Assembly: GCA_934699525.1 (NCBI GenBank)
Contig: CAKUWP010000004.1
Span: 42,724-106,723 of the forward strand
Direction of reading: 5' to 3'
DNA length: 64,000 bases
Origin: an uncultured Bacilli bacterium
GTDB taxonomy: Bacteria > Bacillota_I > Bacilli_A > RFN20 > CAG-826
The notes beneath the pieces were generated by a model. The model saw only the letters and a list, made by a program, of their open reading frames with translations, was not told the origin of the DNA and made no database searches. This document shows, piece after piece, positions 34,040 through 56,438 of the stretch (position 1 is the stretch's first letter; each line of letters begins with the position of its first letter). A program made the position numbers and the translations under genes.

Positions 34040-34071
34040 AGGAATGCCCCCGATGGCTCAATCATATATTA

Positions 34072-34163
34072 TTCCGTTATATTTTCAAGTTTTGTTCCGT
34101 GATATTTTCAGTTTTCATTCCGTGACTTTTTCTATTTTCATTCCGTGATATTTTCGGTTTTAA
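34072..34163. repeat. 4 tandem 23-bp direct repeats (TTCCGTGATATTTTCAGTTTTCA)
   Basis: The TTCCGT box recurs at 34072, 34095, 34118 and 34141, immediately upstream of the 32765..34039 start. Confidence 0.85.
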
Positions 34164-34229: not shown

Positions 34230-35528
34230 TCATCGTTTTTCATTCGCCTTCGATTCTACTTCCGGCTCGGAATATTCCAAACAAGGAGTAATGGAATAAG
34301 AGGCGCGAATCCGTTGGACATCGCTATAAAGAAGGGTTTCCTTCTTATTGAGCTCATCCGCCAAAGCAAGGACGAAGTCGCGGTTTTTGATCAGGATATC
34401 GCGGCACAAATAGAGGTAACGTTCTAGTTCACAGGCAACAACGGTTTCTACCCGCGCTTTAAGGGATTCAGAGGTTTCATCTTTTGCCTTCGGTGACAAT
34501 ACCCCAACCCCATTGATGGCATTATCTTCCGCGCCACTTTGAAGAAGGGAGAAAGCCTTGTATAAATCGGATTGGCATCCGCTAGCGACGCGTCCCGATT
34601 CATAAAGCTCACACGCTACCTTCCCACCAAGGGAAAGTAAAACGCATTGACCGCGACGGGTAAAAGGAGTATCTAGTTGGGTGAATCCTTCATCCGCATG
34701 AATGGAAACTAATCCCACCACTCCTTTCCGAAGCACCTCGGCAACCGCGCAATGCCCCGCTTCGTGGATGGAAACCATCCTTTGGTTTTCGGGGGTACGT
34801 TTCTTGCAACCGTAATCACGATAATGATCTTTTAGATATGCCTCCACGACATCTTCGGTTCCTACGACTTTCTTTCGTTTCCTGGCGGCGATGACGGCGC
34901 TTTCGTTAATGATCTTATCCAAATTCGCGCAGGAAGAATAACTGACCATCTTCGTGATATCCTCATAATTCGCATTAGGATCTACCTTCCGCTTACGAAG
35001 GTAATATTCCACGATCGCCGCGGCGTCTTCTTTCTCTGGAATTTCGATTGGGAATTGATGGTCTAAACGGCCGCTGCGAAGCAAAGAATTCGGCAATTTG
35101 CTCCTTTTATTGGCCGTAGCAACAACAAGGACCCCTTTGTCTTTACAAGCATCCATATTCGATTGGATAGTCACAAAGCAAGGGGCATCGGCATCTTTTC
35201 GATCTTCCGAGCAAAGTTTATCGATGTCATCAAAGAAAACGATGGCCTGTTTGTTTTTCACCACTTCTTCGAAGGCGGCGTTGATGTCTTTCATAATGCC
35301 TTGATCGTCTTTATTTTTCGTAATGGTATAAACGGGCAACCTCGAGGCTTCGATAAACGAAGTGGCAAGAAGCGTTTTGCCCATGCCGGGTTCGCCATAA
35401 AAGAGGATGCCGTGAGGGAGATTAGCCCCCATTTCTTCGTAAATGGTGGGGTTTTGAATCATGTCGAGGATTTGGTTTAATTCGTCTTTTACTTTTTGGT
35501 ATCCAATGACTTTGTCGAAAGGTTTCAT
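34230..35528 (-). CDS. soluble FtsH-like AAA+ ATPase fused to an M41 zinc metallopeptidase (no TM segment)
   Basis: 432 aa with Walker A GEPGMGKT. Walker B reads VFFDDID (DD, not DE). It has an SRH with an Arg finger (RSGRLD) and a HEAGH zinc motif. Confidence 0.7.
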   Translation of the reverse strand: MKPFDKVIGYQKVKDELNQILDMIQNPTIYEEMGANLPHGILFYGEPGMGKTLLATSFIEASRLPVYTITKNKDDQGIMKDINAAFEEVVKNKQAIVFFDDIDKLCSEDRKDADAPCFVTIQSNMDACKDKGVLVVATANKRSKLPNSLLRSGRLDHQFPIEIPEKEDAAAIVEYYLRKRKVDPNANYEDITKMVSYSSCANLDKIINESAVIAARKRKKVVGTEDVVEAYLKDHYRDYGCKKRTPENQRMVSIHEAGHCAVAEVLRKGVVGLVSIHADEGFTQLDTPFTRRGQCVLLSLGGKVACELYESGRVASGCQSDLYKAFSLLQSGAEDNAINGVGVLSPKAKDETSESLKARVETVVACELERYLYLCRDILIKNRDFVLALADELNKKETLLYSDVQRIRASYSITPCLEYSEPEVESKANEKR

Positions 35529-36452: not shown

Positions 36453-36908
36453 CTATTCAATTGTTTTTATAGCGCAAACAAATGCCATTCCTGGGATTTG
36501 CCTGTAATGGCCCTCTTCCCTTTCGTCCACGACATACCCGTCGCACAGAAGCAAGAAATGATATTTTTGGTACTGATTCAGTTTCTGATAATTATCAACG
36601 ACAACAACGATGTTTTTCGATGCGAGCAATTTGTCGATAAAATCCGACGTAAAGAATTGCCCCTTTAGGACCAAATCTCCTCTAAACCGGATTTCTCCGT
36701 TGCATTTTGGTTGGACTGCACCATCGAGAAATATTCCGTGGATATCCTCTTTGTGATGGTTCATCCATTGCCTAACCATTGCCGTCTTTCCAGTTCCGGA
36801 GTATCCATCAAAACGGACGCTTTGACGCATTTCTAGTGCGTAATCCAGTTCTTTGGATACCTGACAATTCGGATCGTAATATTCTTCCATTATCGTTCCC
36901 CTATTCAT
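36453..36908 (-). CDS. small P-loop NTPase
   Basis: 151 aa with Walker A GYSGTGKT and a hydrophobic strand-Asp VVVVD. Its start overlaps the upstream gene by 4 bp. Confidence 0.55.
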   Translation of the reverse strand: MNRGTIMEEYYDPNCQVSKELDYALEMRQSVRFDGYSGTGKTAMVRQWMNHHKEDIHGIFLDGAVQPKCNGEIRFRGDLVLKGQFFTSDFIDKLLASKNIVVVVDNYQKLNQYQKYHFLLLCDGYVVDEREEGHYRQIPGMAFVCAIKTIE

Positions 36909-38377
36909 TCCTTTTCATCTTTGCTTAATTTTCCAAACCCCATCCTGCCGTCATAGATTTCAGTTCCGCAGTGAGAACATACGCAGGCTTTATTCCCGTC
37001 ATCAACAGGCTCTTCCCCGTCGCATTTAGGACAACGGACAAAGAGATCAAGGGGTTCGTCTTCGGGGCATAAATTGGAAACTCGTTTCCGCACCTCTACT
37101 TGATCGAGAACCAAATTGACATCGAATAGATGATCCTTTTGCCGTGGGGTTAGATAGTTATAGTAAGCGGATAGCCTCGTTAGATAGTAATTCGCGAATT
37201 CGACGTTAATGCTCGCGGGTTTCATCACTTCTACGTAATCGGCGATGCAGGATTCCCCGTTGCCGATAGGGTCGGATAGTAACCAGGATTTAAAAAAGCC
37301 GATGTCCGCGAAATAATTGACGAGTCTTTGATTCAAAGGGCGATTCTTCCCGGCAACGCGAACAATCTTAAACGTATCTAAGTCATAGCCTCGTCCAGTA
37401 AATAGATTTGTGCAGTCCTTCATGTTATCAACGTTTTGCCAATGGAGTTTTTCGTGAAAAAAGGATTCAAAGGATTTGGAAATCATCTTCTCATCTTTGT
37501 CCTTGAAATAGAACGAAATAATGCAGGACCTCCCCCCAAGCGGAGCAATCGTCTTTTGCATCATGCGGTCCAAATGACCGTACCTTTTGGCCAATTTGGG
37601 GTTCGACAGGCGGAACATCTCGTTGTTATCCGCGAATTCTTTCTTTCGTTTCTCATCTTGTAAGAATAATTTCGTTAGGCACAGGGTGGGGAACACGATA
37701 TTTTCGATTTTTTCGAAAAGGTAATGGTCTTTGCCATCTTGGTTAAGCAACGTGCAAGCCGGCAAAAGGAAAGCATAGGGGTCATGATTGACCTCTTTTA
37801 GGTAGCAAACCTTGGTCCATTGGGGGCTAGATTCTCCGGGCCACTGGATTTGAATGGGGCAGTTTTCACGGTACGCTTTTTCTAGAATCTGAATTTTTTG
37901 GATGACTTCTTGCGACTGTTTGGTTCCTCCTTGAAGATAGCGGGAACTTAGTTCTTGAATGGATTTTTTTGAATTTTCGGTAGTGGCAAAGGCATCGAGA
38001 ATCCGCTCTTCGTAAAATTCCGTGTCGCTTTTCCCGATATACGGATCATTGTGGATAGCAGCCAAAACGCGGGCAGTTTGCTCCTCGTTCAGACCATTTC
38101 TTTGTTCGATGTAAAATTTACTGCCTTTCTTACATTCCAAAACAAAAGGAAATTCATACTTATCCGATAACTCTTTTAGATATTTCAGACAATCCGAAAT
38201 CCGTTGACGCTTAATCTGATTTCCTGACACCCCTTCTCCTTGATAGGTGATGCCGTATTCTTCATCCGCGTAACGACAAATGTCCGCTTGTTTAACGGGA
38301 TGGTCTTTATCGGTATGATGCAAAAGATAATTCAAAGTAATTAGGATTTCTCGCTGATGGATGCGTGTGTCTTTCAT
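36905..38377 (-). CDS. HTH-containing protein with a C-terminal zinc ribbon
   Basis: 490 aa with an N-terminal DeoR/wHTH-like segment and a C-terminal CPKC...CSHC. Confidence 0.5.
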   Translation of the reverse strand: MKDTRIHQREILITLNYLLHHTDKDHPVKQADICRYADEEYGITYQGEGVSGNQIKRQRISDCLKYLKELSDKYEFPFVLECKKGSKFYIEQRNGLNEEQTARVLAAIHNDPYIGKSDTEFYEERILDAFATTENSKKSIQELSSRYLQGGTKQSQEVIQKIQILEKAYRENCPIQIQWPGESSPQWTKVCYLKEVNHDPYAFLLPACTLLNQDGKDHYLFEKIENIVFPTLCLTKLFLQDEKRKKEFADNNEMFRLSNPKLAKRYGHLDRMMQKTIAPLGGRSCIISFYFKDKDEKMISKSFESFFHEKLHWQNVDNMKDCTNLFTGRGYDLDTFKIVRVAGKNRPLNQRLVNYFADIGFFKSWLLSDPIGNGESCIADYVEVMKPASINVEFANYYLTRLSAYYNYLTPRQKDHLFDVNLVLDQVEVRKRVSNLCPEDEPLDLFVRCPKCDGEEPVDDGNKACVCSHCGTEIYDGRMGFGKLSKDEKE

Positions 38378-39385: not shown

Positions 39386-40138
39386 CTATATTCTATCCAA
39401 GCCCACTTTGATTTTTTCGTAGCCCCACAAAATATGATCCATTTCCGTCCTACTGAGCCCTGGGCTCTTTGCCTTTAATTCATCCAATGATTTGCAGAGA
39501 TTCTCGTACCATTGCGCGGTTACTTTGACGTCGATTGTTGTTTTCACGGTCCTCTTAAGACCATAGTACTTTCTATAATCATTCAATTTACCAACAACAT
39601 TATTGTCGTAAATGTAGTAAGAATCGCCGTCAAACAAATATTCCTGAAGATATTTGCACACCTTGCTGCACCAACTACATTCGTGTCTTGATTTTAGCGA
39701 AACAAATTTCTCCATTTCCTCCACCAAGGTCCACTCGCCATCTTTTAATCTCCTATAAAACGTAGCGTCTTGATTCAATATGAAATCAGTAATCGCATCT
39801 TTGGATTGTTTGGATTTGCCTTGAATACGATTTGAAATCGCTACCTGCCATACAAATTTTTCAAGGTTGGCTCTTGTAAGGGCCTTTTGTATATTTTGAA
39901 CACTGCTTCTATTTTGGAAAACACCCAATACCTTCAAAATTTTAACCTGAGAATTTAGTTGGTTCTGGGTTTCCTTTTCGATTATTTGTGCGTCGCTCTT
40001 CGTCAAAGGGCAAATGTAATGCCGTAATTCATCTCGAATATCCCTTATAGAAAATTTGGCACTCAGATGACCGTCAATCATTCCCAACAATGATGTTTTA
40101 TTCACGTGATGCCCCTCCACCAATTTGGCATTTACCAA
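39386..40138 (-). CDS. hypothetical protein
   Basis: 250-aa ORF, 9 bp downstream of 40148..40711. Confidence 0.45.
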   Translation of the reverse strand: MVNAKLVEGHHVNKTSLLGMIDGHLSAKFSIRDIRDELRHYICPLTKSDAQIIEKETQNQLNSQVKILKVLGVFQNRSSVQNIQKALTRANLEKFVWQVAISNRIQGKSKQSKDAITDFILNQDATFYRRLKDGEWTLVEEMEKFVSLKSRHECSWCSKVCKYLQEYLFDGDSYYIYDNNVVGKLNDYRKYYGLKRTVKTTIDVKVTAQWYENLCKSLDELKAKSPGLSRTEMDHILWGYEKIKVGLDRI

Positions 40139-40147: not shown

Positions 40148-40711
40148 TCAAATTTTAACGCCCTTCTCTTGCTTGGCAAATTGATTCAAATACGTCATTA
40201 GCGATGTTCCAAATTTTGCTATATCATCAATATTGTCGACAATGATTAGCATACTCGTTTCAGACGGCCACGCTTTTTTAATACTTTTTGACGAACCCTT
40301 CCCGGCATAAGCCGCGAAAAAAATAAATTTCCCTTGGTAGAACACTATATTTTTATGCGCAACGGAATTTCGTATCGCTTCATAAAATTTCAATACCGTC
40401 ATACCGTCAGGGATAACAAAACAATTGCTCGAGATAAGGCTTTTATAATCCGTTTCCGAATCGCCAACTATATATGGCAAAGCCGTTTGTTCACTGAGCC
40501 ACGTAAAGTATTTTTTGCAATCAGTTGAGTTCCTGAAGCATTTGCTAATGCATATAGGATTTCCCAACGCTTCTTTTGAAACTCCGTATACAATTAGCGT
40601 GTTTAAAACATTTACATCGCTAAAAGGCACATTATTAACAATACAGTCCTCGGGAATGCCCAATAAACCCATGGATACATCTAACGTTTTTTCGTTTTTA
40701 TCATTTGGCAT
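40148..40711 (-). CDS. hypothetical protein with a possible HEPN motif
   Basis: 187 aa. RNSVAH fits the HEPN Rx4-6H signature. This is inference only. Confidence 0.4.
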   Translation of the reverse strand: MPNDKNEKTLDVSMGLLGIPEDCIVNNVPFSDVNVLNTLIVYGVSKEALGNPICISKCFRNSTDCKKYFTWLSEQTALPYIVGDSETDYKSLISSNCFVIPDGMTVLKFYEAIRNSVAHKNIVFYQGKFIFFAAYAGKGSSKSIKKAWPSETSMLIIVDNIDDIAKFGTSLMTYLNQFAKQEKGVKI

Positions 40712-40869: not shown

Positions 40870-43800
40870 CTAGAAATCGAAATCCTCATCGGGATAAACA
40901 ACACCCTCATCCCCGGACAAGCAAAGAATAATGCAAGGAATGATATCGTTTATCACGTCGAACTTCCCACTTTGGAATTGATTGCCGTGCGGATTGGCTT
41001 CCCCCATATAGCAAATATTATAGCCCGTCGAAGCGTCCACATCAGGCGACCGAAGAAGAGAGCGACCCGACTGAGTGTCGGTCCAGCCTTTGGCCTTCGC
41101 TACCCGAAGAAAATAATCCGAATAATAATCCGATGAGGTGAGGCCGCATGCATCCTCATACAAATGCCCCTCCAATTTATAGGGGTCAAGTAATACATCC
41201 GAGGCATTCAAACCTAAAGATGGGCTCAGTACTTGATCCACGAATTCATTCACCTTTTCAACCCAAGGTCCCCCCTTTCCAAGAATGTATTCTTTGCCCT
41301 GTGAAGCTCCTGGCTTGAAGAAAGATTCGTTTCCAATAGGTGTTTTCATAGCCGCGCGATACGACAATAAAAACACTTTATCTTCCGTATCGTCGGAATA
41401 AAATGCGGTTGCCTCATCAGAAGTTGAACTCGCGGAATTGTCAAGATGAGCGGTGCAAATAACCCTTTGTTCGTTTTCGTTAAACACAAAGGGGTAGAAC
41501 TCATCCGTCAGCCACTTTCGAATATCCGAATATTTATACATCCAAACTGGATGAAACCCACCCTTGGTTACGAATTGTACCTGCCCATTCTCATTTGTCA
41601 CCTGAACAACATTTCCCGGATTCATCGGCCCTTTTGCTTCCAAAACATCCCTTGATGTCATCAAATAGAAGCAAGTTCCATTGCGGTGGGAAAACTTAAC
41701 AAATTTCCAAAAAAGCGGTTCGATAAAATAAAAATCATTTTCAACCTTGAAGAATTCGAGCCCCTTTAAATGGTACACGTTCTTTTCGTCCGGTTTTGTT
41801 TCATTCAATTCATCAATAAGTTTTGGAGTCATCACCTTGCTTTGTGGGTATTTCCCCAATTTAAAACGTAGTATTTTGTGTCCACAATAGTCATATTCCC
41901 CACTGACATTATTGGGGTTCCACAAACGGGTCAATGAAAGTGTCTCTTTCTTGTCGATTCTTACAATTGCGAGTTCTTCGCGAGCCGAAACCAGTTCCTC
42001 ATCTATCGTTTTAATTTCGCTCGAAGTGGCAATAATTTCTTGTATCTTCTTTTCATAAGAGGAAATAGTTTCTTTGCAAAGTTTCTTGTTTTCTTCCGTT
42101 TCTCTATCCAAACGATTCCTTAAATCATTAATTCTATTTCTATTTTCCCTTTTTTGATTTGAAATCTGATTTTCCAAAAGGCTTATTTGTTCCCGAAGCG
42201 CCTTCTTTTCTCCGATTGCAAAAATGCCACATTTCGAAAGTCGGCTAACCGCTTCATTATATTTTGATCGAAGGTCTTTGGATTTCTCTTCCAGAAGCAA
42301 CTCTTCCTTTTCAAATTCCGAATTAGATTTTTGGATTTCTTCTTCGAGTTTTTCTTTTAGACCACAGACGAAATCTTTAATTTCGATAATTTCCGTATTG
42401 CAGGATATCAGCGTTTGCTTCTTTTCTTCCAAATCACGAATGTTCTTCTCTAATTTCGCAGGGTCCTTTTCCTCAAATGAACGAATATAATCGTCGACAT
42501 TTTTATAGCCAGCAATCTCTTGAAATCCCTTAAATATTTCCTCTTTTTCCGCCTTGGTATTGAATCTAGAAATTCTAGCAATTAACTTCTCGTAAATAAG
42601 TTCCGTTAACGAGCCATTGAGAATCGAGTCCGCTTTGGTTTGATAAAATTTTGCTTGTCTTTTAGAGTCTTTAAAATCTCCAAGTTCTCGGAACATTTGC
42701 GATAATTCTATAAATTCTTTCGGCTTTGACGCTTCCTTTTTAAACGCAAAGGCTTCTTCGTATTTCTGAAGTTTTTCTAGATATTCTTTGTGTGGGGCAT
42801 ACTGTTTCAAAAAATTCTGAATTTCTCGGCATAATTCAGGTTCGTTTTTTTTAAGTTTTTGGAAATCGATATCCTCAATGTCCCACATGTCGTCAAATGC
42901 TTTTTCAGGGGTAGAATATTGGAAACTCGGCAATTTATTAACGTACAGAAAATTGCAAGAGGACGCCAATGGCGAATGTTTGGGATCGTAATCCTCTATG
43001 CTAGATGGATCTTCTAAAGCAAAAAGGACGCTCCATTTATCGTCGAATTCTTTTTCATCAAAATGACTAGGGTCTTTGACAAAAAGCAGCATGTGTCTTA
43101 GTTCTTTAAACGTGGAATGAATTAAATCATCCTCATTTTTCTGTTCCCGTTTGTCAGTTTGCTTGCGGGTTGTTTTTTCGAAAAGCTTATCAATTCCCTT
43201 TGTTAAATCTTGCAAATAGCCTAACTTGCCGACATCTTGTGCTTGAAGATTCGTAAACTCGTCTGGCATATCATAAGGGGAAATTCCTTTATAACAAGGA
43301 ATCAAATATTTGTTTTTTGCGCCACTACTTAGTTTCAAAAAACGAGCCCACTCATTCTTGACCCAAGGTGCATCAAAATATTCTTTTTTCGTGCCTATAA
43401 CAAGCATAATTTTAGAACTTGTCAAAGCAGAGAAAATATAAGGTTCATATTCTTGACCAATCTTATCCTCAAGAGATATTTTTGAGAAAAATACCTTATA
43501 GCCTCTATCGACCAAAGCATCGTAAATTTCCTCAGCCAAGACACTATCTGCAGTGCGCTGCCCCATTTCATCTGTTTCTTTATAACAAATGAAAATATCA
43601 TAAGGCGATTCGGAATTCGAAATTTCCAAGATTTTCTTTTGAACATTATCGATATATTGAGCTTCCGCTTCATAGATTTTTTTGGAAACGGAGTCCGCGT
43701 TTTCCAGCGCTTTTAAATAATCGGAGTCGTTCAAGATGGAGTCAACAACAGTTCGATGACAAGTCGGTATTTTCTTCCCCGTTTTGGGGTCATCAACGTA

Positions 43801-44097
43801 TTCCACGCCATACTTACACAAGCATAAGCCCCAATATGCCTCCGCCTGTCTTTCTTGGTCTAAAATAATCCGCTCGTAAATACAGCTCGCTCTATCGTAT
43901 TCATTTTTGGATAGCAGGTATGTTGCCCTATTATAAAGTTGCACGGTTTTTTCTTCATCCGTATTCGGTAACGTTTGTTTCGTACCGCAAAACGGACACG
44001 TTGCCGTTTTTTCTTGTCCGGAGATTTCTAAATCTCCACCGCACATTTTGCATTTATAAAACATACCCCATCCTTTCGGAATGCACCGTAACTCCAA
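40870..44097 (-). CDS. zinc-ribbon / TIR domain / coiled-coil protein with an unknown C-terminal domain
   Basis: 1075 aa with an N-terminal CKMCGG...CPFCG zinc ribbon. The TIR core is YDIFICYKETDE...KVFF...SKIMLVIGTKKEYFDAPWVKNEW. A long E/K-rich coiled coil follows. The likely true start is the MFYKCK Met at 44064. Confidence 0.75.
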   Translation of the reverse strand: MELRCIPKGWGMFYKCKMCGGDLEISGQEKTATCPFCGTKQTLPNTDEEKTVQLYNRATYLLSKNEYDRASCIYERIILDQERQAEAYWGLCLCKYGVEYVDDPKTGKKIPTCHRTVVDSILNDSDYLKALENADSVSKKIYEAEAQYIDNVQKKILEISNSESPYDIFICYKETDEMGQRTADSVLAEEIYDALVDRGYKVFFSKISLEDKIGQEYEPYIFSALTSSKIMLVIGTKKEYFDAPWVKNEWARFLKLSSGAKNKYLIPCYKGISPYDMPDEFTNLQAQDVGKLGYLQDLTKGIDKLFEKTTRKQTDKREQKNEDDLIHSTFKELRHMLLFVKDPSHFDEKEFDDKWSVLFALEDPSSIEDYDPKHSPLASSCNFLYVNKLPSFQYSTPEKAFDDMWDIEDIDFQKLKKNEPELCREIQNFLKQYAPHKEYLEKLQKYEEAFAFKKEASKPKEFIELSQMFRELGDFKDSKRQAKFYQTKADSILNGSLTELIYEKLIARISRFNTKAEKEEIFKGFQEIAGYKNVDDYIRSFEEKDPAKLEKNIRDLEEKKQTLISCNTEIIEIKDFVCGLKEKLEEEIQKSNSEFEKEELLLEEKSKDLRSKYNEAVSRLSKCGIFAIGEKKALREQISLLENQISNQKRENRNRINDLRNRLDRETEENKKLCKETISSYEKKIQEIIATSSEIKTIDEELVSAREELAIVRIDKKETLSLTRLWNPNNVSGEYDYCGHKILRFKLGKYPQSKVMTPKLIDELNETKPDEKNVYHLKGLEFFKVENDFYFIEPLFWKFVKFSHRNGTCFYLMTSRDVLEAKGPMNPGNVVQVTNENGQVQFVTKGGFHPVWMYKYSDIRKWLTDEFYPFVFNENEQRVICTAHLDNSASSTSDEATAFYSDDTEDKVFLLSYRAAMKTPIGNESFFKPGASQGKEYILGKGGPWVEKVNEFVDQVLSPSLGLNASDVLLDPYKLEGHLYEDACGLTSSDYYSDYFLRVAKAKGWTDTQSGRSLLRSPDVDASTGYNICYMGEANPHGNQFQSGKFDVINDIIPCIILCLSGDEGVVYPDEDFDF

Positions 44098-44182
44098 CTA
44101 TTTCGCTGCACGTCCTCGATTATGCGATTGTTTCGCATTTTCATTTATCATTACAGAGAAACGAAAACACGGTGAAAGTTAG

Positions 44183-45421
44183 TTAGGGCCTGTCGGCCTT
44201 GAATTCGCTATCGATTTTTTCAATTCGTGTTTGAACGGAGTCGATTTCCGTTTGAATTTCTTTTTTGATTTTTTCTACCCGTTCTTTTTGCAGATAAATC
44301 TCCCTAGTAAGCTGTTCAATTTGTTGTTTTTTTGCCTTCTTTTCTTTCATGGCGAAAAATCCAAGCGATGACAACGTCATATTGGCGATCTGGATTTCTT
44401 CTTTTAAATCCGCAATTTCTTTATCCGCGTTGGTTTTATCTTTTTTTGCTTCTAATTCGCTTACCCGAGATAAAAGTTCCTCTTTTTCTGAAAGTAGCGA
44501 CTTCTTAAGTTCTTGATTATTTTCCCAATATTTTTGGATTCTAACCCTCTTTTCCGCCTCTAGCCGAGCCTCCTCTTCTTTTCGGTGTCTTTCTTCCAGT
44601 TCGTTTTTTCTATTTTCAAATGCCTGCAGTTTTCTTTTGTGCTCTTCCAATTCTTTTTTCCATATTTCTTTAGCCTCATAGGACAAGCCTATGTTTTGCG
44701 TAGCCAAACGATCGTAAAGATCCCAATAACGATGCGGATAAGTCAAATTGAGGCCCGTTTTGTCCATTTCTATTAGTTGTTGGTAGGCCGAATCCAAGCA
44801 AACGTCCCCATACTCATCAAGCGAGTCAAGAATCGTTCGGCAATTAATCAAAGCCGCGATGTATTCGTGCCAGCCTGAGCTGTCATCTTCATGATCGTAT
44901 TTCTTCCATTTATCGGAGATTTCATTAATGGCCTGCATAACTATTGACGTTATATAGTTGCCGAAATACCCCATAAGCCATCTATAACTTATAAACGATT
45001 CATTCTTCTTAGACACGGAATAAAATGCGTCTCGGCACTTTACTACAACATCCGCAAAGCCAACCGCAACATTCGTTTCTTCAGGATAACTAATAAAACT
45101 TTCCTTGACCTCGTCAACGCGATACATGCCCCAGCAGCCAAGAATCATTTCAACCTCATAGCCTATATAAAATTTCTCATCCTCGTCACATGAAGAATAT
45201 GGTTCTAAATAATTCGAAACTGCCGTCGAGGCTTCGCCCGTCTTGTTATCGTCAAGCAACTTTCGAACCTCGTGAAAGCACCGGGTGACGAAATCACCAC
45301 GCTCCTTGTACGATTCAGCATAGTCGGATTCATATTCTTTTCCGCAGGTCCTGCAAGCATATTTTAGCGGGCCCTTTTTAAATATAACTCCGCCACATTC
45401 CTTGCATTTTTGTAAAACCAT
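44183..45421 (-). CDS. zinc-ribbon coiled-coil protein
   Basis: 412 aa with an N-terminal CKECGG...CRTCGK. Its C-terminal coiled coil shares the motif GFFAMKEKKAKKQQI with the TIR protein (GIFAIGEKKALREQI). Confidence 0.6.
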   Translation of the reverse strand: MVLQKCKECGGVIFKKGPLKYACRTCGKEYESDYAESYKERGDFVTRCFHEVRKLLDDNKTGEASTAVSNYLEPYSSCDEDEKFYIGYEVEMILGCWGMYRVDEVKESFISYPEETNVAVGFADVVVKCRDAFYSVSKKNESFISYRWLMGYFGNYITSIVMQAINEISDKWKKYDHEDDSSGWHEYIAALINCRTILDSLDEYGDVCLDSAYQQLIEMDKTGLNLTYPHRYWDLYDRLATQNIGLSYEAKEIWKKELEEHKRKLQAFENRKNELEERHRKEEEARLEAEKRVRIQKYWENNQELKKSLLSEKEELLSRVSELEAKKDKTNADKEIADLKEEIQIANMTLSSLGFFAMKEKKAKKQQIEQLTREIYLQKERVEKIKKEIQTEIDSVQTRIEKIDSEFKADRP

Positions 45422-45433
45422 ATCAAACCTCCA

Positions 45434-45724
45434 TTAATATTGGGACTTTGTCCCATCTGCATAGCATATTAAAAATGAAACAACATCAGTTAACGTGCCG
45501 AGAACGCCTGTAGAAGTCGCGCCTCCACCCAACTTGCAGGGAATCCACAAGCCGTTCCTGCGAACGTTGACTTCCCCAAATAACGCTTTATATCCACTCG
45601 CCCCTTCGTGGTATGTCGTGTTTCTTACCGTCGGAAACGCGAACAAAGCAAAACAGAGTACCAAAAAAGCAAGAAGTATACCGCAACCTACGGCATCCTT
45701 TTTCACGATCTCTTCCTTCCGCAA
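45434..45724 (-). CDS. small single-pass membrane protein
   Basis: 96 aa with one hydrophobic helix. Its start overlaps the end of the SPFH gene by 22 bp. Confidence 0.5.
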   Translation of the reverse strand: MRKEEIVKKDAVGCGILLAFLVLCFALFAFPTVRNTTYHEGASGYKALFGEVNVRRNGLWIPCKLGGGATSTGVLGTLTDVVSFLICYADGTKSQY

Positions 45725-47349
45725 TTGGGGCAGAAATTGGTCGTTATACCCGTTGTACCGCAGTTAGGGCAATCCCAATCTTCAGCAGGCTTTTTTTGTC
45801 CACAATTTGGGCAAAAATTGGAAGAGATTCCCGAGGTTTTGCAATTAGGGCAGTTCCAAAGAACGGGGGTTTTATTTTCGACCACAGGGGCACCATTCAT
45901 CGCGCCAACCACTTCTTTTGAGAGTTCCTTGCCGACCTCTTTGACAATGGAAATCTTAACAGCATCCGTGGCCAAACCGGTGATTCCATCGGCGCTTGAC
46001 CCTACACCATCGATATGTTGAACAGCGCCAGTCGCAACCTGCCTCGTCGTTTCGTCACGGTACGAATAGCCTTTCATCCTCATTTCATCCGCTTCCGCAC
46101 TAGCTTTGGCCCTATAAGCATCGGCGCTTCCTTCAGCTTTTATCCTTTCGACTTCCGCCGCAGCCTTCGCACGCGCAATTTCAACGCTGGATTCTGTTTC
46201 GACTTCTGTCATTAGTCTATCGTGAGCGGCTTGTGCAATCGTTTGCTTAATTCTCTCGTCTTGAACTCTCAGATACTTCTCCGCGTATTGCTCTTTCATT
46301 TTTCTAAAATTCGGGTCGTCATCGGGAGTGAGAATATTGGATATGATAAAGTCGGTCAATTCGATACCGAATTTAGCAATCTGTTTATTGATTTCGGCCA
46401 GCATCGCTTCGCTTATTTCTTGAATGTGCAAATCCACTTCCAGTATGTTGACGTCATTTTCTTTAATGATCTTCCCCAGGAAGTTTTTGACGACACTTAC
46501 AACATTGGGTCTGAATTTCAATGAAATCTCGTCCGATTTCACCCCTTCTTCTAACGATGTTCCGAGTCCAACAACATAGAATAGGAATTTCTCATAATCA
46601 CAAATACGATAGTTATATGTCCCGCATGCGCCTAGTTCAACGTGGAGCCCGGAGAGCGGATCGAACATTCTGATTTTGCTGTCAGTTCCCCAACGCTGAT
46701 TCGTTTGAAACGTCTTCGAAACAAAGAACAATTGTGAATGGAATGAAACGTTTTCTTCATCAAAATTGTCTTTTGAAAGAAGCAAATTACCCAAAGTGAC
46801 AGAATGACGGCCAGCTTCAAACTTACCCGCCAATTTCCCATCCCTTATGAAAATCGCAACCTGAGATTCATTCACTACGATTTGCGATCCGAAGGCAAAA
46901 TCTTCAGATGGGTGTTTCCAAACACAAACATCGTCTTTCTTTTCGCATTTCAAAAGAGTCGGCTGAACTTTTTCCAGATAATCTTGTTCGACGAGTCTTT
47001 CCTGAACATTGATGTGCGTATCGCAGAGTGGGCATACCGCTATTTGAGCGTCCTTCTCTGTCGTAATATGGCAAAAGCACTCCGGACAAATAACATCAAC
47101 GTACTTATATTCATCTTTTGGCTGTATTAAATGTTCTTTGCAAACCGGGCAAATGGGATCATCAGTTTTGCCCCTATTGTAAACAATCAAATTGCCACAA
47201 TGCGGACATTGTTTCGTCCTCATTTTTTCGGTTTTTACCGCCATAACATACCCGCATTGGCACGTAATCTTCCGTTTTGCAAAGAAAGATGTGGACGCTT
47301 CATTGATTCGTCCGCAAACCGGGCATTCAATCAAAAATTTTCTTGCCAT
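45703..47349 (-). CDS. SPFH/Band 7 domain protein with N-terminal (x4) and C-terminal (x2) zinc ribbons (YdjI-like)
   Basis: 548 aa with repeated CPxCG motifs, an SPFH-like core and an A/E/R-rich flotillin-type coiled coil. Confidence 0.65.
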   Translation of the reverse strand: MARKFLIECPVCGRINEASTSFFAKRKITCQCGYVMAVKTEKMRTKQCPHCGNLIVYNRGKTDDPICPVCKEHLIQPKDEYKYVDVICPECFCHITTEKDAQIAVCPLCDTHINVQERLVEQDYLEKVQPTLLKCEKKDDVCVWKHPSEDFAFGSQIVVNESQVAIFIRDGKLAGKFEAGRHSVTLGNLLLSKDNFDEENVSFHSQLFFVSKTFQTNQRWGTDSKIRMFDPLSGLHVELGACGTYNYRICDYEKFLFYVVGLGTSLEEGVKSDEISLKFRPNVVSVVKNFLGKIIKENDVNILEVDLHIQEISEAMLAEINKQIAKFGIELTDFIISNILTPDDDPNFRKMKEQYAEKYLRVQDERIKQTIAQAAHDRLMTEVETESSVEIARAKAAAEVERIKAEGSADAYRAKASAEADEMRMKGYSYRDETTRQVATGAVQHIDGVGSSADGITGLATDAVKISIVKEVGKELSKEVVGAMNGAPVVENKTPVLWNCPNCKTSGISSNFCPNCGQKKPAEDWDCPNCGTTGITTNFCPNCGRKRS

Positions 47350-47810
47350 TCTTGCTTACCCCCTTTTACAATCGCCCAGATTAAGCGTGGCTTTTGGCCT
47401 AATGGCTCCCCATTTTCGCCTTTTTTATAGCGAAAATGTCAATGCCACATAGAAAGCCTCAAGTACGTCACCGCTAAAACCTGGGAGATGTTTAATCGCA
47501 ATGATTAGACATATCTTTTCTAGCATTTCCGAAAATATTTTGCAACTTGGATTCCATGATTTTTTCGGTATTTTGTCTTAATGGTACTCAAATTTCCGAA
47601 AAAGACCAACGCGCCTTTGTCCAATTCGGAATAATTGGCATCACGTATCGATCAGGATCCCCCACTTCCTTGGCCATAGAACCCCATTATTTGCGTTGCC
47701 CAAGCAAAATATAGAAGCCTTGGTTTTTTCTTACATTTCATTTTTCAAACAAACCTGTTGTCTCTCGCGTTATTTACAAAAACTATGCACGTATTAAAAT
47801 CATTGAAGAC

Positions 47811-48116
47811 ATGCAATCATGCATCTCGATAGAATGCCCCGATAATGAACTTGGAGCGCAAAATAGAATGGCGCATTTGAAGACGGAATTCGTTAGATTT
47901 ATCGGCAAGGCGGTATTGAGTGCCGCCACTCTTTTAAGGCTTGTATTTTCCAATGTTTCAATGCAGGATTTTTCAGCTAAATCTAGTATCGGCTGGAGCA
48001 GGTTTGCAAGTGCAGCCGATAAGCAACTATATGCTAAATATGGCTTGCCCGATAAAGGAACTTGCTTGATCGAAAATACGATAAACCAATGGATGAATTT
48101 GGAGGCAGTGGCATGA
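47811..48116 (+). CDS. small ORF translationally coupled (ATGA overlap) to the downstream gene
   Basis: 101 aa. Its stop overlaps the ATG at 48113. Confidence 0.3.
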   Translation: MQSCISIECPDNELGAQNRMAHLKTEFVRFIGKAVLSAATLLRLVFSNVSMQDFSAKSSIGWSRFASAADKQLYAKYGLPDKGTCLIENTINQWMNLEAVA

Positions 48117-49915
48117 ATATAGTACACGATTTGCTCCCTGCTCAAAAAACAAGAAAACGCAATCTTAAAGTAACGATTGATTTATATCCAATTACCACAG
48201 AACTCTATAATGAATTGGAGCGAATTGGAATTATTGATCGTATAAAAGATATTCCTCAACTTGGTCTAATAAAGGTAAAGAAAGAACTCAAAAAATCTAG
48301 GTATGATTACGCAATGCTTCAACTTTACTTTCACCAGTTGATAAGGCAGAAAATTCAGCCCAATTTAAGACTATCTTACGGTAACCATATAAAAAATGCG
48401 CCTATTGCAAATAAGGAAACTAATGAATATGCAGACTTTGGCATAGATGTCGGAATTATCAATAAGAGTTTCGCACCATCAATAGCAGACGCGATGCAAA
48501 CGCTATCGATTGTCTATAACATAGGGCATTTCTATAATACATTTACTTCATCTAGAGCCGTAGTTTTGCTTGCTGCAGAAGATATAAAATTTAGAAATCT
48601 GCTATTGGAGGCTTCTCGTGAGCCTAGATATAAAGAAACGGTTACTAAGCTACTTGAAGCAAAAAATTATCAGAAATTCCATTTAGTTAATTCATTGTTA
48701 ATATTGGAACACTGCAACCAAAGATTGCCATCTGTACTATTTGCAAAAGAACTTCTGTATGCATATATAAACGAACAGAATCTCCCGGAAAACAGCAAGC
48801 TAAAATACGTATTTGATGTCTTTAGAAAGGTCAGAACGTTATCGTATATGGCCTATGACCTTCAAATCGCCAAAACACCGTTCACCATTGATATTGCAAA
48901 TGGAGAAGCTCTACTTATTTTGATGACGGAATGGTTGTCTGAATACAATAATACGATGTCGCCCAATCATCTTGTTAATTCAATGAGCAAATTGTTAGAC
49001 GATACTGTTTACAATGAAAACTCAAACGCAATTTGTTACTACAGAATTTCAAAAAGAATTGTCGGTAAGCTGAAAGAATCGCCATCGCATAACGCCACTA
49101 GTTATTACAACGATTTGTTCTTAAATAAAGAAAGTGTTTTAAATGTCGCTTATTCGCAGAGTAGAAACTATATAGAAAAACAAATTCTCAAATTAACGTT
49201 TTCTAAGGATGATAGAAATTTGTCATTTGGTTTAATTGGTGATCTTGAAAGTTTAAATAATACTCGTGTTGGATATTATGATAGGCGTACCGGCGAGCAA
49301 ACAATAGTCGCGTCGATAAAGTCATCGTGCAATTATGAAAAAAAGACGTTAGCGGCATTAAAGATAATTAGAAAGGCTATCTCCGCATTGAGAAAAATAG
49401 GCGATATTTCAACTTCGGACACGAGATATATACTTTGCGTAAAATTTTTCTTATTTTACTTATTTAGAGAAAATCCAGCCGTTATTGTTCCAACTATTAG
49501 CAAAGAAAAATGTGTTTTTTGCACGAGGGGCAAAAAGAGCAGAATCAACGAAGTTAAGCGGTTATTGAATGACAATAATGGTTCCGAAGACCAAGCACAT
49601 GAATGCAAATTTTTAGTTAGCGTTCTTAATGAGGATAAAACGAATGATACAACATTAACCGTCCCGGCAAGCATTCAAGTATATGATAAAAATACACCCG
49701 GGAAAAAATTGTGCGAATTCGATGGAATAATCATTCACCCATTGAGAGAAAGGGATCAAGTTATCTTTTTAGAAGCCAAAAATATATCCCACACTCCTTC
49801 GGAAGGAAAGAACTGCCTATTAGATAAATTTAAAAAATTATCGATCCCGTATAGTGAAGAGGACATCAAAATTAGAAATTATGACGCATTTATGAAATAT
49901 TGCATAAGAAGGTGA
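48113..49915 (+). CDS. large AT-rich protein with a possible C-terminal PD-(D/E)xK nuclease motif
   Basis: A GGAGG Shine-Dalgarno motif lies 7 nt before the ATG. The C-terminus reads EFDGIIIHP...VIFLEAKN (D...ExK). Confidence 0.55.
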   Translation: MNIVHDLLPAQKTRKRNLKVTIDLYPITTELYNELERIGIIDRIKDIPQLGLIKVKKELKKSRYDYAMLQLYFHQLIRQKIQPNLRLSYGNHIKNAPIANKETNEYADFGIDVGIINKSFAPSIADAMQTLSIVYNIGHFYNTFTSSRAVVLLAAEDIKFRNLLLEASREPRYKETVTKLLEAKNYQKFHLVNSLLILEHCNQRLPSVLFAKELLYAYINEQNLPENSKLKYVFDVFRKVRTLSYMAYDLQIAKTPFTIDIANGEALLILMTEWLSEYNNTMSPNHLVNSMSKLLDDTVYNENSNAICYYRISKRIVGKLKESPSHNATSYYNDLFLNKESVLNVAYSQSRNYIEKQILKLTFSKDDRNLSFGLIGDLESLNNTRVGYYDRRTGEQTIVASIKSSCNYEKKTLAALKIIRKAISALRKIGDISTSDTRYILCVKFFLFYLFRENPAVIVPTISKEKCVFCTRGKKSRINEVKRLLNDNNGSEDQAHECKFLVSVLNEDKTNDTTLTVPASIQVYDKNTPGKKLCEFDGIIIHPLRERDQVIFLEAKNISHTPSEGKNCLLDKFKKLSIPYSEEDIKIRNYDAFMKYCIRR

Positions 49916-50004
49916 CCACGCTGGAACAATCCGTACTCTAGTGTGTTCACTTTAATTCGTTTCAAAACCTTATTTGCAAACAAAGGATGAATAGATTCGA
50001 AAGA

Positions 50005-50390
50005 CCTCATTTGCAAACGAGGGATGAATAAATCCGATTATTTCTCGATTTTCCCGAATCTATCGCGGTATTTTATGCGGATTTGCTTCGAAAACCCTCT
50101 CTTCATGAACCGTTTCGCCTTGTTCATTTTGCTCCTTGGACCACTGTCAGCGACTAAAGCAAACCGATCAAATCTTGAGCGCCGAGCGACGTGGCCAAAA
50201 TGCGGGCGCACGATTTTCCCCCTCCTGTCGTAGGGAGTCATTTATCTCGACCAGATCGGCTTTTCCGCGGCGATATATTGTAAGACTGCTGCTTCAAATC
50301 TGCGGTGTCGCCACGGAGAGGCATTGATTGCGGATGCGACCACGTCAATTATAACGCCTCAGAAAATCATCCCTCGTTTGCAAATGAGGT
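50005..50390. mobile_element. MITE-like element with perfect 23-bp terminal inverted repeats CCTCATTTGCAAACGAGGGATGA
   Basis: Left TIR 50005..50027, right TIR 50368..50390 as an exact reverse complement. A second copy of the left end sits at 51014. Confidence 0.7.
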
Positions 50391-50486
50391 TTTAATTCTT
50401 TTAGATCTTTGCGCGAAGAATTTTATGGCATTCTCTCATTCGTTGACATAAAGCGCGCTTCACCCAAACGAGAAGAGGTAAAAGGA

Positions 50487-50918
50487 TTATTTTGAGTTAT
50501 CCGTAAAGAAATCTAAGGTCTTTTGGCACATTTCTCCACCGAAAAATTTCTCCAGTGCATTCTTATATTTATTGTTCGTCGTAGCCAAATATGCCATCGT
50601 AAGAGAGGACTGCAACTTTAAGGCGTCTACTACGCCGAATATTTCAAACGCAGTGAATGATTGGCTCATAATGGCTTCTACGCATTCATCATAACGATTG
50701 CGTAAAATGGGATTAGCCATGTATGCCTTTGCTTCTTCGGTGCTTTTTATGGCAAAAAACTCACTTGTTTCGCTTCTGCCAAGTCCTGAAGCTTGAGGAA
50801 AGACATACCACATCCAATGGGTTACCTTTCTCCCGTTTTTGAGTTCTTTTATAGCGTCCAGGTAGTTGGATTTCTGCGCATCCAAGAATCTTTTAAGATT
50901 GTATTTATCTTCGTTCAT
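50487..50918 (-). CDS. DUF1810 family protein
   Basis: GRKVTHWMWYVFPQ is the DUF1810 signature. The annotated ORF N-terminus (to 51122) runs into the repeat element, so the start is more likely the MNEDKY Met. Confidence 0.65.
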   Translation of the reverse strand: MNEDKYNLKRFLDAQKSNYLDAIKELKNGRKVTHWMWYVFPQASGLGRSETSEFFAIKSTEEAKAYMANPILRNRYDECVEAIMSQSFTAFEIFGVVDALKLQSSLTMAYLATTNNKYKNALEKFFGGEMCQKTLDFFTDNSK

Positions 50919-51013
50919 TTTGTCATTCCCTAATAACTTTATGCGTTTCCAATCGATGTGGTAAACATTTTCTACACTAACAAGTTTTCTATCAGAGACT
51001 ATCGTGATTAAAA

Positions 51014-51480
51014 CCTCATTTGCAAACGAGGGATGAATAAATCCGATTATTTCTCGATTTTCCCGAATCTGTCGTGGTATTTTATTCGGATTATCTTGGA
51101 AAACGCCATCTCCAGAAACCATTTCACCTTATCCATTTTGTCGTGGAGGTCGTATATCTCATCCAAAGGATTGTCTTCGTCCTTCATTCCGTGGGTTTCG
51201 GCGCTTGTGTGGATCTCGCTTTTGATGGCGAGCGCGTCGATGACGGCGTTGTGGCCCTTTTCACCGTCGTGGACCAACGTCGAGCATTCGGCGATTCGCT
51301 TTCCGTATGCCTTGAGCATGGCTTTGTCACCCGGCTTGTTTTTGCCGGTGACGACGTAGAAACTCCATTCGCCGTCGGTCCCGCACGCGACGTAGTATTG
51401 GCAGCCCCTGGTCAAGCCGCCTTTGGCGTGGGGGCGGAGGAAAAAGCAGGGGCTGGAAGACCGACGGTGAGACCGTGAAA
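51014..51480 (-). mobile_element. truncated second copy of the TIR element carrying a degenerate transposase remnant (possibly IS1595-like)
   Basis: A 31-bp match to the right TIR at 51006..51036. A GC-rich block (51150..51480) encodes YYVACGTDGEWSFYVV...ECSTLVHDGEKGH, weakly like the ISXO2 domain, with a frameshift. No right end was found. Confidence 0.35.
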
Positions 51481-51616: not shown

Positions 51617-52339
51617 TCAATAGAAGATCCTTTTGTAAGGGTACATCCAATGGTAGCTTGGATGGTAGCCTTCAAAGAAATCGATACCTGATTTTCTTAA
51701 TTCTTCGTTTACCATGAAATGGAGACCTTTTCTTCCAAAAGTGCAAAGATTAACAATGTGGCATTCTTTAGAAGAGTGAATAAGGGCGTTTAACCTGTTC
51801 GACAAATCGTCTTGGAACCCAGCACTCCAGAAATTAATCCAGTTTTCATCTCTCGCATTCACGTCAATTGGGCTTTGCCCCTGGCTTGCCTGGTATTGAA
51901 CAGCATTAACCAAAACCAATTTGTAGGAATTTTGATGCAAAGTATTGATAAAAAGCGGGGATTGTAAGAAAACATCATTCAAGTACTTCAAAATATTGTT
52001 ACCAGCGCCACCGCTATTAAAATCGTTAGCTGGGCCAATGGGATCCCCGTTTTGATCATACTCACAGCAGTGCGGACTTTCCAAAATTAACACGATGTAA
52101 CTGCCTGAAGGCACTTTCGAATAATCGACGCAATAACCAGGAGCATTGTTCGAAATCGATTGTCTCCCTCTAAAATTCACACTTTGAAATCGAAATTGTT
52201 GTCCGCAGCCTCCGATAACGTTCCCAACAATTTGATCAGGGCACAGCTGAGTGGAAAAATTAATGGCTCCTTGACCAGGTTTAGTTAAATTATTAGGTAT
52301 GTTGGCAGCTAAATTTACCGTAATGTTGAATCTTTGCAT
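51617..52339 (-). CDS. unknown-function protein (ILESPH-motif family), last gene of the toxin/ABC operon
   Basis: Probable start at MQRFNITV. Paralogous to 59429..60091 (shared IxILESPH...E(Y/F)...G.P.GPAN...QYQ.S). Confidence 0.55.
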   Translation of the reverse strand: MQRFNITVNLAANIPNNLTKPGQGAINFSTQLCPDQIVGNVIGGCGQQFRFQSVNFRGRQSISNNAPGYCVDYSKVPSGSYIVLILESPHCCEYDQNGDPIGPANDFNSGGAGNNILKYLNDVFLQSPLFINTLHQNSYKLVLVNAVQYQASQGQSPIDVNARDENWINFWSAGFQDDLSNRLNALIHSSKECHIVNLCTFGRKGLHFMVNEELRKSGIDFFEGYHPSYHWMYPYKRIFY

Positions 52340-52359
52340 ATTTTTACCTTCTTGAATGA

Positions 52360-53094
52360 TTAAAACCGATAAAAACCATTTTCGTCCACTGGCCCAAAAC
52401 AGTTGAAGCACTTATATTCGTCGACTATAGGCTCAATCTTTTTTTGTGCGATTTGATATTGTTTATTGATTCGCGGTAGGGCGTGGCAATGGGTGACAAT
52501 CAGAACGCCTGCTTTCGGGTTATTCTCGTGAATCGAATTAATCATATTCGAAATGGTCCTAACATTTTTTGCGTCAAGGTTATTCAAGGGTTCGTCAATT
52601 AAGAATAAATCGGAATTTTTTCGGCATAAAGTAGCAATAAGAGCCGCCATTTTCTTTTCCCCTCCGCTTAATTGGGGCCCGCGTTTTGAAAATAGTTTCT
52701 TATTTTTCAAATATGGAATTCCGAATTTATCGAACAAACTATTGATATAATCTTCGTCTCTTGTCCCGCAATGAAGTTCATAGGAATAACACGCTTCTTT
52801 GAAGGGCGTTTCCTCGCAAAAAGAATCTTCTTGAGGAACATAGCCAATTCGTTTTCTATAATTTTGAAGATCGAAATCACGAGAAGCAATTTCATTGCCT
52901 CGATATCGAATGTCCCCCTTGATGTTTAAACCGCTTCTTTCTCCAAAAATCGCCTTGAGCAAAGTCGATTTTCCCGAGCCGTTGTCGCCTGACAAAATCA
53001 CAGTTTGTCCTTCTTCAATCGAAAGATTAGCGTGATCCAAAATTACGTTTTCTCCAACGGAGATAGATAAGTCCACAACATCAATCAACGCCAT
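52360..53094 (-). CDS. ABC transporter ATP-binding protein
   Basis: Walker A GDNGSGKST, signature LSGGEKK, Walker B LFLIDEP. Confidence 0.85.
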   Translation of the reverse strand: MALIDVVDLSISVGENVILDHANLSIEEGQTVILSGDNGSGKSTLLKAIFGERSGLNIKGDIRYRGNEIASRDFDLQNYRKRIGYVPQEDSFCEETPFKEACYSYELHCGTRDEDYINSLFDKFGIPYLKNKKLFSKRGPQLSGGEKKMAALIATLCRKNSDLFLIDEPLNNLDAKNVRTISNMINSIHENNPKAGVLIVTHCHALPRINKQYQIAQKKIEPIVDEYKCFNCFGPVDENGFYRF

Positions 53095-53095
53095 G

Positions 53096-54049: not shown

Positions 54050-54057
54050 GACTTCTT

Positions 54058-55221: not shown

Positions 55222-55224
55222 TCA

Positions 55225-55776: not shown

Positions 55777-55793
55777 AATGATTAACCCCTTTT

Positions 55794-56435: not shown

Positions 56436-56438
56436 CTA

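Follow-up and report, generated by a model that had tools for sequence, protein, structure and literature searches.

A scaffold-linked TIR protein in a candidate membrane-associated defence cassette of gut and rumen Bacillota

The subject of this article is a gene cassette on the minus strand of contig CAKUWP010000004.1 (GenBank assembly GCA_934699525.1), from an uncultured Bacilli bacterium. It lies in a stretch of 64,000 nucleotides, contig positions 42,724 to 106,723, that we call the window and whose own numbering we use throughout. At the heart of the cassette are a zinc-ribbon-rich SPFH protein and a TIR protein, encoded together with smaller partners. What is established is the identity of the domains, their conserved linkage and their setting in a defence island. 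The reading we favour, at somewhat better than an even chance, is a five-gene, membrane-associated anti-phage conflict system of the abortive-infection type. That the cassette serves defence in some form is at least that probable and perhaps comfortably so; any specific mechanism would be less secure than the defence-type reading itself.

A preliminary description of this DNA, made from the sequence alone, had proposed a four-gene operon at 40870–47349. All four co-oriented minus-strand open reading frames (ORFs) are there, and the spacings it gave (an overlap of 22 bp, then gaps of 12 and 85 bp) recur with the longest ORFs. From the upstream end they encode the SPFH scaffold (45703–47349, 548 aa), a small integral membrane protein (45434–45706), a zinc-ribbon coiled-coil protein (44183–45421, 412 aa) and the TIR sensor/effector (40870–44064). 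Shorter starts are favoured for the second and fourth genes by ribosome-binding sites and conservation. The small gene would begin at GTG 45706, preceded by the ribosome-binding site GGAAGGAAG, which makes the product 90 aa long (96 aa from TTG 45724) and lets the gene overlap the SPFH stop by 4 bp. For the TIR gene the start would be ATG 44064, with a product of 1064 aa and a gap of 118 bp (the longest ORF, 40870–44097, has 1075 aa). We take these as the likely starts because three things agree: the ribosome-binding sites, the opening 11 codons of the longer TIR reading frame, which are unconserved in the related locus L013 (93% DNA identity), and the gene calls on public contig L008 (100% identity over 15.8 kb), where both shorter starts are used. 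The four genes are real, then, but they are probably not the whole set. A fifth gene at 40148–40711, also on the minus strand, was overlooked; it has a strong ribosome-binding site and encodes a HEPN-like protein of 187 aa with an IRNSVAH motif. By hydropathy a clear transmembrane (TM) helix is confined to the small membrane protein and missing from the other four.

The SPFH protein is the presumed scaffold. It had been called flotillin-like, and Pfam bears this out (Band_7_1, 102.3 bits vs a cut-off of 24, E=3.8e-29, with Zn_ribbon_3/DZR matched C-terminally). Three N-terminal zinc ribbons are followed by Band_7_1 (residues 149–344), an Ala/Glu-rich helical region and two C-terminal ribbons. 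All are of the CxxC...CxxC type, the C-terminal two reading CPNC..CPNC, and the count of Cys motifs is thus five, not the six first reported. There is no TM segment (maximum hydropathy 0.99) and no match in a sequence search of the PDB. The start codon, ATG 47349, is preceded by a good ribosome-binding site, AAAGGGGGT. The small membrane protein next door has one strong TM helix (residues 6–24), a weaker C-terminal hydrophobic segment and no Pfam match. It is homologous to a 175-aa protein with four TM segments, minus the two middle ones, whose gene lies before the coiled-coil gene in the related loci L007, L009 and L010. We considered whether it might also be the common four-TM partner met in the wider family described below; a profile–profile comparison gave no detectable relationship, and we treat the two as separate families. 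Upstream of the SPFH gene, the intergenic stretch 47350–47800 (minus strand) is the presumed promoter or regulatory region. Several relatives (L002, L007, L010) have a small RHH gene (62–69 aa) before the SPFH gene; this stretch has none. Promoter and terminator scans of the cassette gave counts no higher than expected from shuffled sequence.

The TIR protein is the likely business end of the cassette. An N-terminal zinc ribbon (residues 1–31) and a helical region with a CxC..CH knuckle (39–151) precede the TIR domain (155–296; 43177–43602). Then come a helical TPR-like region (302–530), a coiled-coil hairpin (535–715) with CGIFAI-GEKKA at its apex, and a beta-rich C-terminal domain (720–1064). 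The claim of a bona fide TIR domain is well founded. TIR_2 scores above the Pfam gathering threshold (46.0 bits vs 28, E=8.6e-12, residues 168–290 of the 1075-aa ORF), and the predicted fold is the flavodoxin-like one of solved TIR structures. In an AlphaFold2 model of the whole protein (predicted local distance difference test, pLDDT, 78), the TIR domain matches AbTir (7uxu) in Foldseek with a template-modelling score of 0.68 and probability 1.0; matches to AbTir, SPARTA TIR-APAZ and MyD88 all have probability 1.0 and scores of about 0.68–0.7. The whole sequence, like that of the SPFH protein, finds nothing in the PDB. A WxxxE pattern with a catalytic Glu is known from plant and bacterial TIR NADases. 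Here 18 full-length homologues and 9 diverse N-terminal modules all keep W234, N237, E238 and W239. By the known pattern, E238 of W-x-x-N-E-W (codon 43351–43353) would be the catalytic-type Glu, as judged by motif rather than by superposition.

The preliminary description called the C-terminal domain unknown. It is the beta-rich region, and it contains a DUF6273 match (39.1 bits vs 23.5). The full-length homologues P0001–P0017 (35–92% identical) carry TIR_2 in 17/17 cases and DUF6273 in 16/17. DUF6273 is reported to be a C-type-lectin-like domain, diversified by diversity-generating retroelements (DGRs) in the receptor-binding proteins of gut phages (PMC10743442). A lectin-like fold of the window's own C-terminus is unconfirmed: Foldseek of the whole TIR model against the PDB found the TIR domain and no C-terminal match, and against BFVD coiled coils dominate the matches. 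Against the closest relative, L013, the window protein is about 96% identical over most of its length and 68–78% identical over residues ~909–989 of the 1064-aa form (41098–41340), where pLDDT is low. This cluster of substitutions would fit a ligand-contact surface. Diversification by a nearby DGR we looked for and rejected, though one could lie elsewhere in the genome. There is no template- or variable-repeat-like sequence in the window or in 10 related loci, and no reverse transcriptase domain among the annotated neighbours of related loci. The only repeat candidate, an 85-bp stretch of L001, is a relic whose mismatches are transitions running both ways and are not specific to adenine.

The coiled-coil protein looks like an adaptor. 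Its N-terminal CxxC..CxxC ribbon is followed by a helical bundle (44–224), a beta hairpin and a long coiled-coil hairpin with LGFFA and then KEKKAKK at its apex; its AlphaFold2 model (pLDDT 88) has ribbon, bundle and long hairpin. In alignments the Cys residues and the apex motif are invariant. The hairpin tips of the coiled-coil and TIR proteins carry a common motif, G-hydrophobic-F-A then (K)EKK, a likeness detectable in the DNA of the two genes too (our repeat D11) and found again in many of the wider family's zinc-ribbon partners. A hydrophobic tip beside a basic patch suggests contact with a membrane or with the scaffold. This protein is also the rarest marker of the cassette: a search of 5.8 billion proteins found it in 11 clusters, and one of 185,579 species genomes found it at 8 loci, each in a Bacillota metagenome-assembled genome from gut, rumen or similar. 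It belongs to no Pfam or PADLOC family, with only weak coiled-coil-type PADLOC matches (LmuB 0.0017, JetC 0.0079). More distant coiled-coil-like proteins adjoin LRR_5 proteins, a stand-alone DUF6273 protein, a TIR_2-Sel1 protein, or a set made up of SPFH, four-TM and HNH_2 genes.

The case for the fifth gene draws on the relatives, where small proteins of 147–191 aa with an LRNxxAH motif are encoded between the SPFH and TIR genes. A hidden Markov model (HMM) of these proteins, built without the window sequence, matches 40148–40711 alone among 496 ORF segments of the window (E=3e-4, the match spanning the motif region only). In the eight-member family alignment R114 and H119 of IRNSVAH, an Rx4H motif, are the sole invariant internal columns, and 3/8 members match PF18736 (HEPN pEK499_p136; best E=3.2e-7). 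The family finds no match in the PDB by sequence. We count 40148–40711 as a probable fifth component because of the motif, the PF18736 matches of its family and the single HMM match; it is probably a soluble protein of HEPN type and a putative RNase co-effector. A second small family in sister clusters, with an RNxxIH motif, is a HEPN candidate at motif level only and has no Pfam match. We asked whether the two are one; profile–profile comparison found no detectable relationship, and we keep them apart. The ORF at 39386–40138 (239/250 aa), a candidate sixth component, was dropped, since it is near none of the related loci.

The neighbourhood survey shows the same genes together in many other genomes despite shuffled order, a point on which the preliminary description had let its proposal stand or fall. 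Re-scored with purpose-built HMMs, L001 reads SPFH, HEPN-like, coiled-coil, TIR, TIR; L002/L003 read coiled-coil, TIR, RHH, SPFH, four-TM, HEPN-like; L004 reads coiled-coil, TIR, SPFH, HEPN-like, TIR; L006 reads SPFH, coiled-coil, TIR; and L007 and L009–12 have RHH, SPFH, HEPN-like and TIR, then further on RHH, TM, coiled-coil and TIR. SPFH orthologues adjoin TIR genes in L001, L002, L004, L006, L007 and L009–12. The SPFH, coiled-coil and one or two TIR-DUF6273 genes, together with a HEPN-like gene in all but L006, thus recur in permuted order, and the families are co-oriented in every related locus with enough flanking sequence. Membership that is kept while order changes is strong evidence of a functional unit.

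Behind these few loci stands a far larger family. The first ~300 aa of the TIR protein (zinc ribbon, knuckle helical region and TIR; the N-module hereafter) recur at ~55–76% identity in thousands of proteins, attached to C-termini as different as TPR, RCC1-type propellers, DUF6273, Flg_new and ankyrin. A word-index search scored at least 8000 candidates, all significant, and an exhaustive one yielded 4010 clusters at 50% identity (E<=1e-30). Its carriers are mainly bacteria of the gut and rumen. We scored 80 metagenome loci carrying the N-module with purpose-built HMMs: an SPFH gene of the same subfamily is present in 61/80, a four-TM gene (~215–243 aa), directly after the SPFH gene, in 56/80, and one or both in 67/80, at a median gap of 112 bp. 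Among the 13 sampled loci with >=3 kb on both sides, 11 have scaffold genes. Those genes are co-oriented with the TIR genes, the single reverse-strand match being a TIR-module fragment, and each locus holds one to four tandem TIR paralogues. Interleaved in sister clusters are genes for HNH_2, DUF2971, weak SIR2_2/AbiH-like proteins and the RNxxIH family. From this survey it follows that the family core is an SPFH protein, a membrane partner and a variable number of zinc-ribbon-TIR-variable-domain proteins. The window variant adds a coiled-coil adaptor, has a different, short TM protein and carries a single TIR-DUF6273 gene. It is a rare elaboration of this much larger SPFH, four-TM and TIR family, which the preliminary description had missed.

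The neighbourhood speaks for defence. From ~29.5 to 63 kb the window is a defence island. An AbiEii/AbiEi pair (29589–31302) is followed by two tandem AAA_14-DUF4143 genes (to 34039) that match PADLOC candidate PDC-S01 with E down to 2e-91, and then by an IetA-like AAA+ protein (34230–35528; PADLOC IetA E=1.6e-18), soluble, with no TM segment and a weak Peptidase_M41-like C-terminus. On the far side of the cassette a minus-strand operon (51617–59041), mostly of unknown proteins, includes an ABC/SMC_N-type ATPase (52360–53094) and has a WYL-WCX regulator gene (58064–59041) at its upstream (5') end; it is probably another defence system. Beyond it a C5 cytosine methylase (Dcm; 60208–61464), divergent from a MutH/Sau3AI-like endonuclease (61796–63268), makes a type II restriction-modification pair. 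Elsewhere, relatives of the cassette adjoin McrBC and DarT/Macro genes, or PIN_8, Fic and AAA_14-DUF4143 genes.

The cassette also seems to have travelled. Direct repeats bracket the whole SPFH-TIR cassette in two unrelated contigs: in L001 at 6104–6205 and 16493–16595 (92% identical), and in L022 at 5915–6025 and 12359–12469 (98%), where it forms the 3' end of an adjacent gene. These ~100–111-bp repeats suggest that the cassette was inserted or exchanged as a unit. The 85-bp relic already mentioned, intergenic at 8637–8721 of L001, is what is left of a TIR-DUF6273 gene's 3' end (75% identity with 16290–16374) and is evidence of past cassette shuffling. An origin in a phage or plasmid was rejected on the collections searched. 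N-module tblastn found no match in 50,697 phage genomes or 72,556 plasmids and 2 matches in 2.9 million IMG/VR contigs; PHROG gave nothing meaningful, with one borderline match (E=5e-4) to a PHROG of unknown function.

How might such a cassette work? The soluble, zinc-ribbon-rich SPFH protein may oligomerise into a ring or cage under the membrane, on the YdjI model, with the small TM protein as its likely anchor. This platform would hold the coiled-coil adaptor and the TIR protein inactive; a common ribbon type and the shared apex motif are what we observe of that relationship. The variable DUF6273 domain would bind an invader-derived ligand, a role we propose because of the variability of the C-terminus and its swapping for TPR, RCC1, LRR-like and ankyrin domains in paralogues. 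Binding would cluster the TIR domains and lead to cleavage of NAD+ or to an NAD-derived signal, the observed part here being the intact catalytic-type Glu, and the HEPN-like protein would add RNA cleavage, with growth arrest or death of the infected cell as the presumed outcome. We propose the effector part because of the known TIR NADases and HEPN RNases, and the scaffold part because of the YdjI/YdjG/YdjH precedent in Bacillus subtilis.

That precedent deserves a closer look. [quoted passage not shown] The cassette's SPFH protein has the YdjI-like traits: no anchor of its own, a C-terminal ribbon and a TM-protein gene next door. As in pspA-ydjGHI, it is a soluble protein of Band_7_1 type with an adjacent membrane-protein gene and a coiled-coil partner, and partners start with a zinc ribbon (MIISYKCPNC in YdjG; MFYKCKMCGG and MVLQKCKECGG here). 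The likeness to YdjGHI noted in the preliminary description therefore holds for the architecture, but pspA is absent. So are PspA/IM30 and the TPM (YdjH) and NTF2-like (YdjG) domains; hence the cassette is not a pspA-ydjGHI operon. Its SPFH protein has three extra N-terminal ribbons, its partners carry TIR, DUF6273 and HEPN-like modules, and it sits, patchily distributed, in a defence island.

With the TIR anti-phage systems (Thoeris ThsB/ThsA, SPARTA TIR-APAZ, AbTir) the cassette shares a TIR_2-type domain with a catalytic-type Glu, a predicted TIR fold nearest to those of AbTir and SPARTA, and an expected output, predicted for the cassette, of NAD+ cleavage or an NAD-derived signal after oligomerisation. 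It differs in lacking a ThsA-like SLOG/Macro effector, an Argonaute and a STING or SAVED domain, and in housing its TIR inside a zinc ribbon-helical-TIR module genetically tied to an SPFH scaffold. Thoeris we set aside: NCBIfam type III ThcB4 scores 26.2 bits vs a cut-off of 220, there is no ThsA-like neighbour, and PADLOC gives no match. Kaur et al. (2020) reportedly described DGR-linked conflict systems with diversified C-type-lectin sensors. Such DGR-linked lectin (FGS) or repeat-sensor systems, and NLR/Avs-like receptors, likewise join a conserved effector module to a variable C-terminal ligand-binding module, and have tandem paralogues with different sensors (lectin-like, TPR, beta-propeller, LRR). 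Unlike them, the cassette has no NTPase switch (STAND, MoxR or GTPase), and unlike the DGR-linked systems it has no reverse transcriptase or template/variable repeat that we could find in the window or related loci; domain swapping and ordinary substitution seem to be the sources of its family's diversity. SPFH cages such as HflK/C-FtsH and stomatin-NfeD offer a looser parallel, in which an SPFH oligomer with a membrane-partner gene may control a potentially dangerous enzyme at the membrane, but the cassette's SPFH protein lacks a TM anchor, its partner is neither NfeD nor FtsH, and the client would be a TIR enzyme.

We class the cassette as a TIR-effector defence plus a scaffold that we have not found reported for any defence system. 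The combination had been put forward as undescribed, and so it appears. Open full-text literature (subscription journals were outside the search) yielded no system in which SPFH, Band-7 or flotillin proteins are combined with TIR, HEPN or defence, and a recent systematic survey of TIR systems does not mention the SPFH, Band-7 or flotillin terms.

The case for defence is circumstantial but consistent: the island, the interleaved HEPN and HNH genes and the invariant TIR Glu all agree with the role first suggested. Several observations pull the other way. No system model in PADLOC-DB v2.0.0 is matched by any of the five proteins. The N-module, ~60% identical throughout the family, varies unusually little for a supposed arms-race gene. 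Lectin-like, Flg_new and LRR_5-type C-termini are more typical of surface or phage receptor-binding proteins than of cytoplasmic sensors, fold searches with the coiled-coil protein return generic helical hairpins only, and the L002 and L022 loci are surrounded by housekeeping genes. The fifth component has weaknesses of its own. The 187-aa window protein has no PF18736 match even at E<=5, and its HEPN assignment rests on a short motif, on position and on transitivity within the family. In L013, the closest relative, homology to the window ends exactly at the TIR stop codon; a different gene comes next, and no HEPN-like gene lies downstream of TIR.

Could the cassette be something else? One rival is an envelope-stress or membrane-maintenance module of the PspA-YdjGHI type, with the SPFH, TM and coiled-coil proteins organising or repairing membrane and the TIR protein acting as scaffold or metabolic signal generator instead of immune effector. 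We consider this unlikely. Searches detected no PspA_IM30, TPM or NTF2-like domain and no pspA nearby, and the patchy, rare distribution (those 8 coiled-coil loci), the tandem paralogue arrays with swapped sensor domains, the interleaved HEPN and HNH genes and the defence-island neighbours all sit badly with it. The repeats around the L001 and L022 cassettes speak of mobility, small RHH genes precede several copies as in many toxin–antitoxin loci, and gene order is shuffled, with a TIR relic left behind in L001. These features would suit a selfish addiction cassette, or an anti-plasmid or anti-conjugative-element system, whose toxins (TIR and HEPN) are sequestered by the SPFH and coiled-coil proteins. 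Such a role seems to us quite unlikely, for a large multi-component set with sensor-like variable domains is atypical of toxin–antitoxin modules, and the plasmid and phage collections hold no match; in mechanism it overlaps with the favoured reading and does not exclude it.

The C-termini that trouble the defence reading would sit more easily in another: TIR effectors exported or packaged in vesicles and directed at a host or competitor, like TIR virulence factors of the Tcp type in pathogens, with the SPFH/TM pair organising the vesicles. DUF6273, Flg_new, LRR_5 and RCC1-like domains are typical of Firmicute surface or phage receptor-binding proteins, and the family favours gut and rumen. Yet the TIR and coiled-coil proteins have neither signal peptide nor TM segment, their N-terminal Cys4 ribbons argue for the cytoplasm, no secretion-system or LXG/WXG genes occur among annotated or Pfam-scanned neighbours, and the HEPN/HNH partners and the island better suit an intracellular conflict role. 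We regard export as distinctly improbable. As for a chance juxtaposition of unrelated genes, nothing positive speaks for it, and the promoter and terminator scans were uninformative. It is effectively excluded because in dozens of independent contigs these families stay linked on one strand, usually at distances of <150 bp and in varying order.

If the family is indeed a defence system, it would add a membrane-platform principle to bacterial immunity; to our knowledge no SPFH-scaffold-dependent defence system was known before. More tentatively, at a little under an even chance, we propose a very large class of immune systems in gut and rumen Bacillota in which an SPFH cage and its membrane partner would organise arrays of TIR receptors with swappable sensors. 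SPFH/TIR arrays would then be a prokaryotic counterpart of raft-organised TIR receptor signalling, and the poorly understood YdjI-type SPFH proteins would gain a second, testable function. A defence role would also give one to thousands of hypothetical proteins labelled 'TIR domain-containing' or 'SPFH' in these bacteria, and it would offer a natural library of sensors on one signalling module with which to decipher what sensors recognise. The size of the family makes SPFH-TIR clusters a worthwhile target.

The rest of the window has its own curiosities. Closest to the cassette, and divergent from it, a 617-aa ORF on the plus strand (48062–49915) lies in a low-GC (0.35) patch. Its C-terminus, on visual inspection, shows a PD-(D/E)xK-like D...E-x-K motif (EFDGIII...FLEAKN); no Pfam, PADLOC or PHROGs family matches the protein. 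Next to it, within 49964–51140, repeats of three kinds bracket a DUF1810 gene (50487–51122): a direct repeat of 131 nt (87%), units of 37 nt at 49964, 50001 and 51010, and an inverted repeat of 30 nt without mismatch (50367–50396 and 51007–51036). These repeats look like recombination sites or a small mobile cassette. On the other side, two adjacent ORFs at 36453–38377 (490 aa and 151 aa) correspond to one 599-aa winged helix-turn-helix and P-loop protein in L013 (5130–6929). A split gene, a frameshift or a programmed arrangement could each account for the pair, whose 490-aa member has a zinc ribbon at its end. Four 23-nt units (TTCCGTGATATTTTCA-like) stand in tandem at 34062–34153, immediately upstream of the AAA_14-DUF4143 gene 32765–34039, and look like iterons or an operator array; a third AAA_14-DUF4143 paralogue lies 25 kb away (5749–7050). 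Farther out, a protein with Schlafen AlbA_2, HATPase_c_4 and winged helix-turn-helix domains (13392–14726) is encoded beside a tRNA-Arg gene (14983–15059), and a high-GC stretch at 16–24 kb holds ordinary chromosomal genes, FeoB and a GltD-like oxidoreductase among them. Near the start of the window a 425-bp segment is duplicated (1962–2386 and 2684–3108, 85% identity), and a 145-bp repeat occurs at 2446–2588 and 5552–5696.

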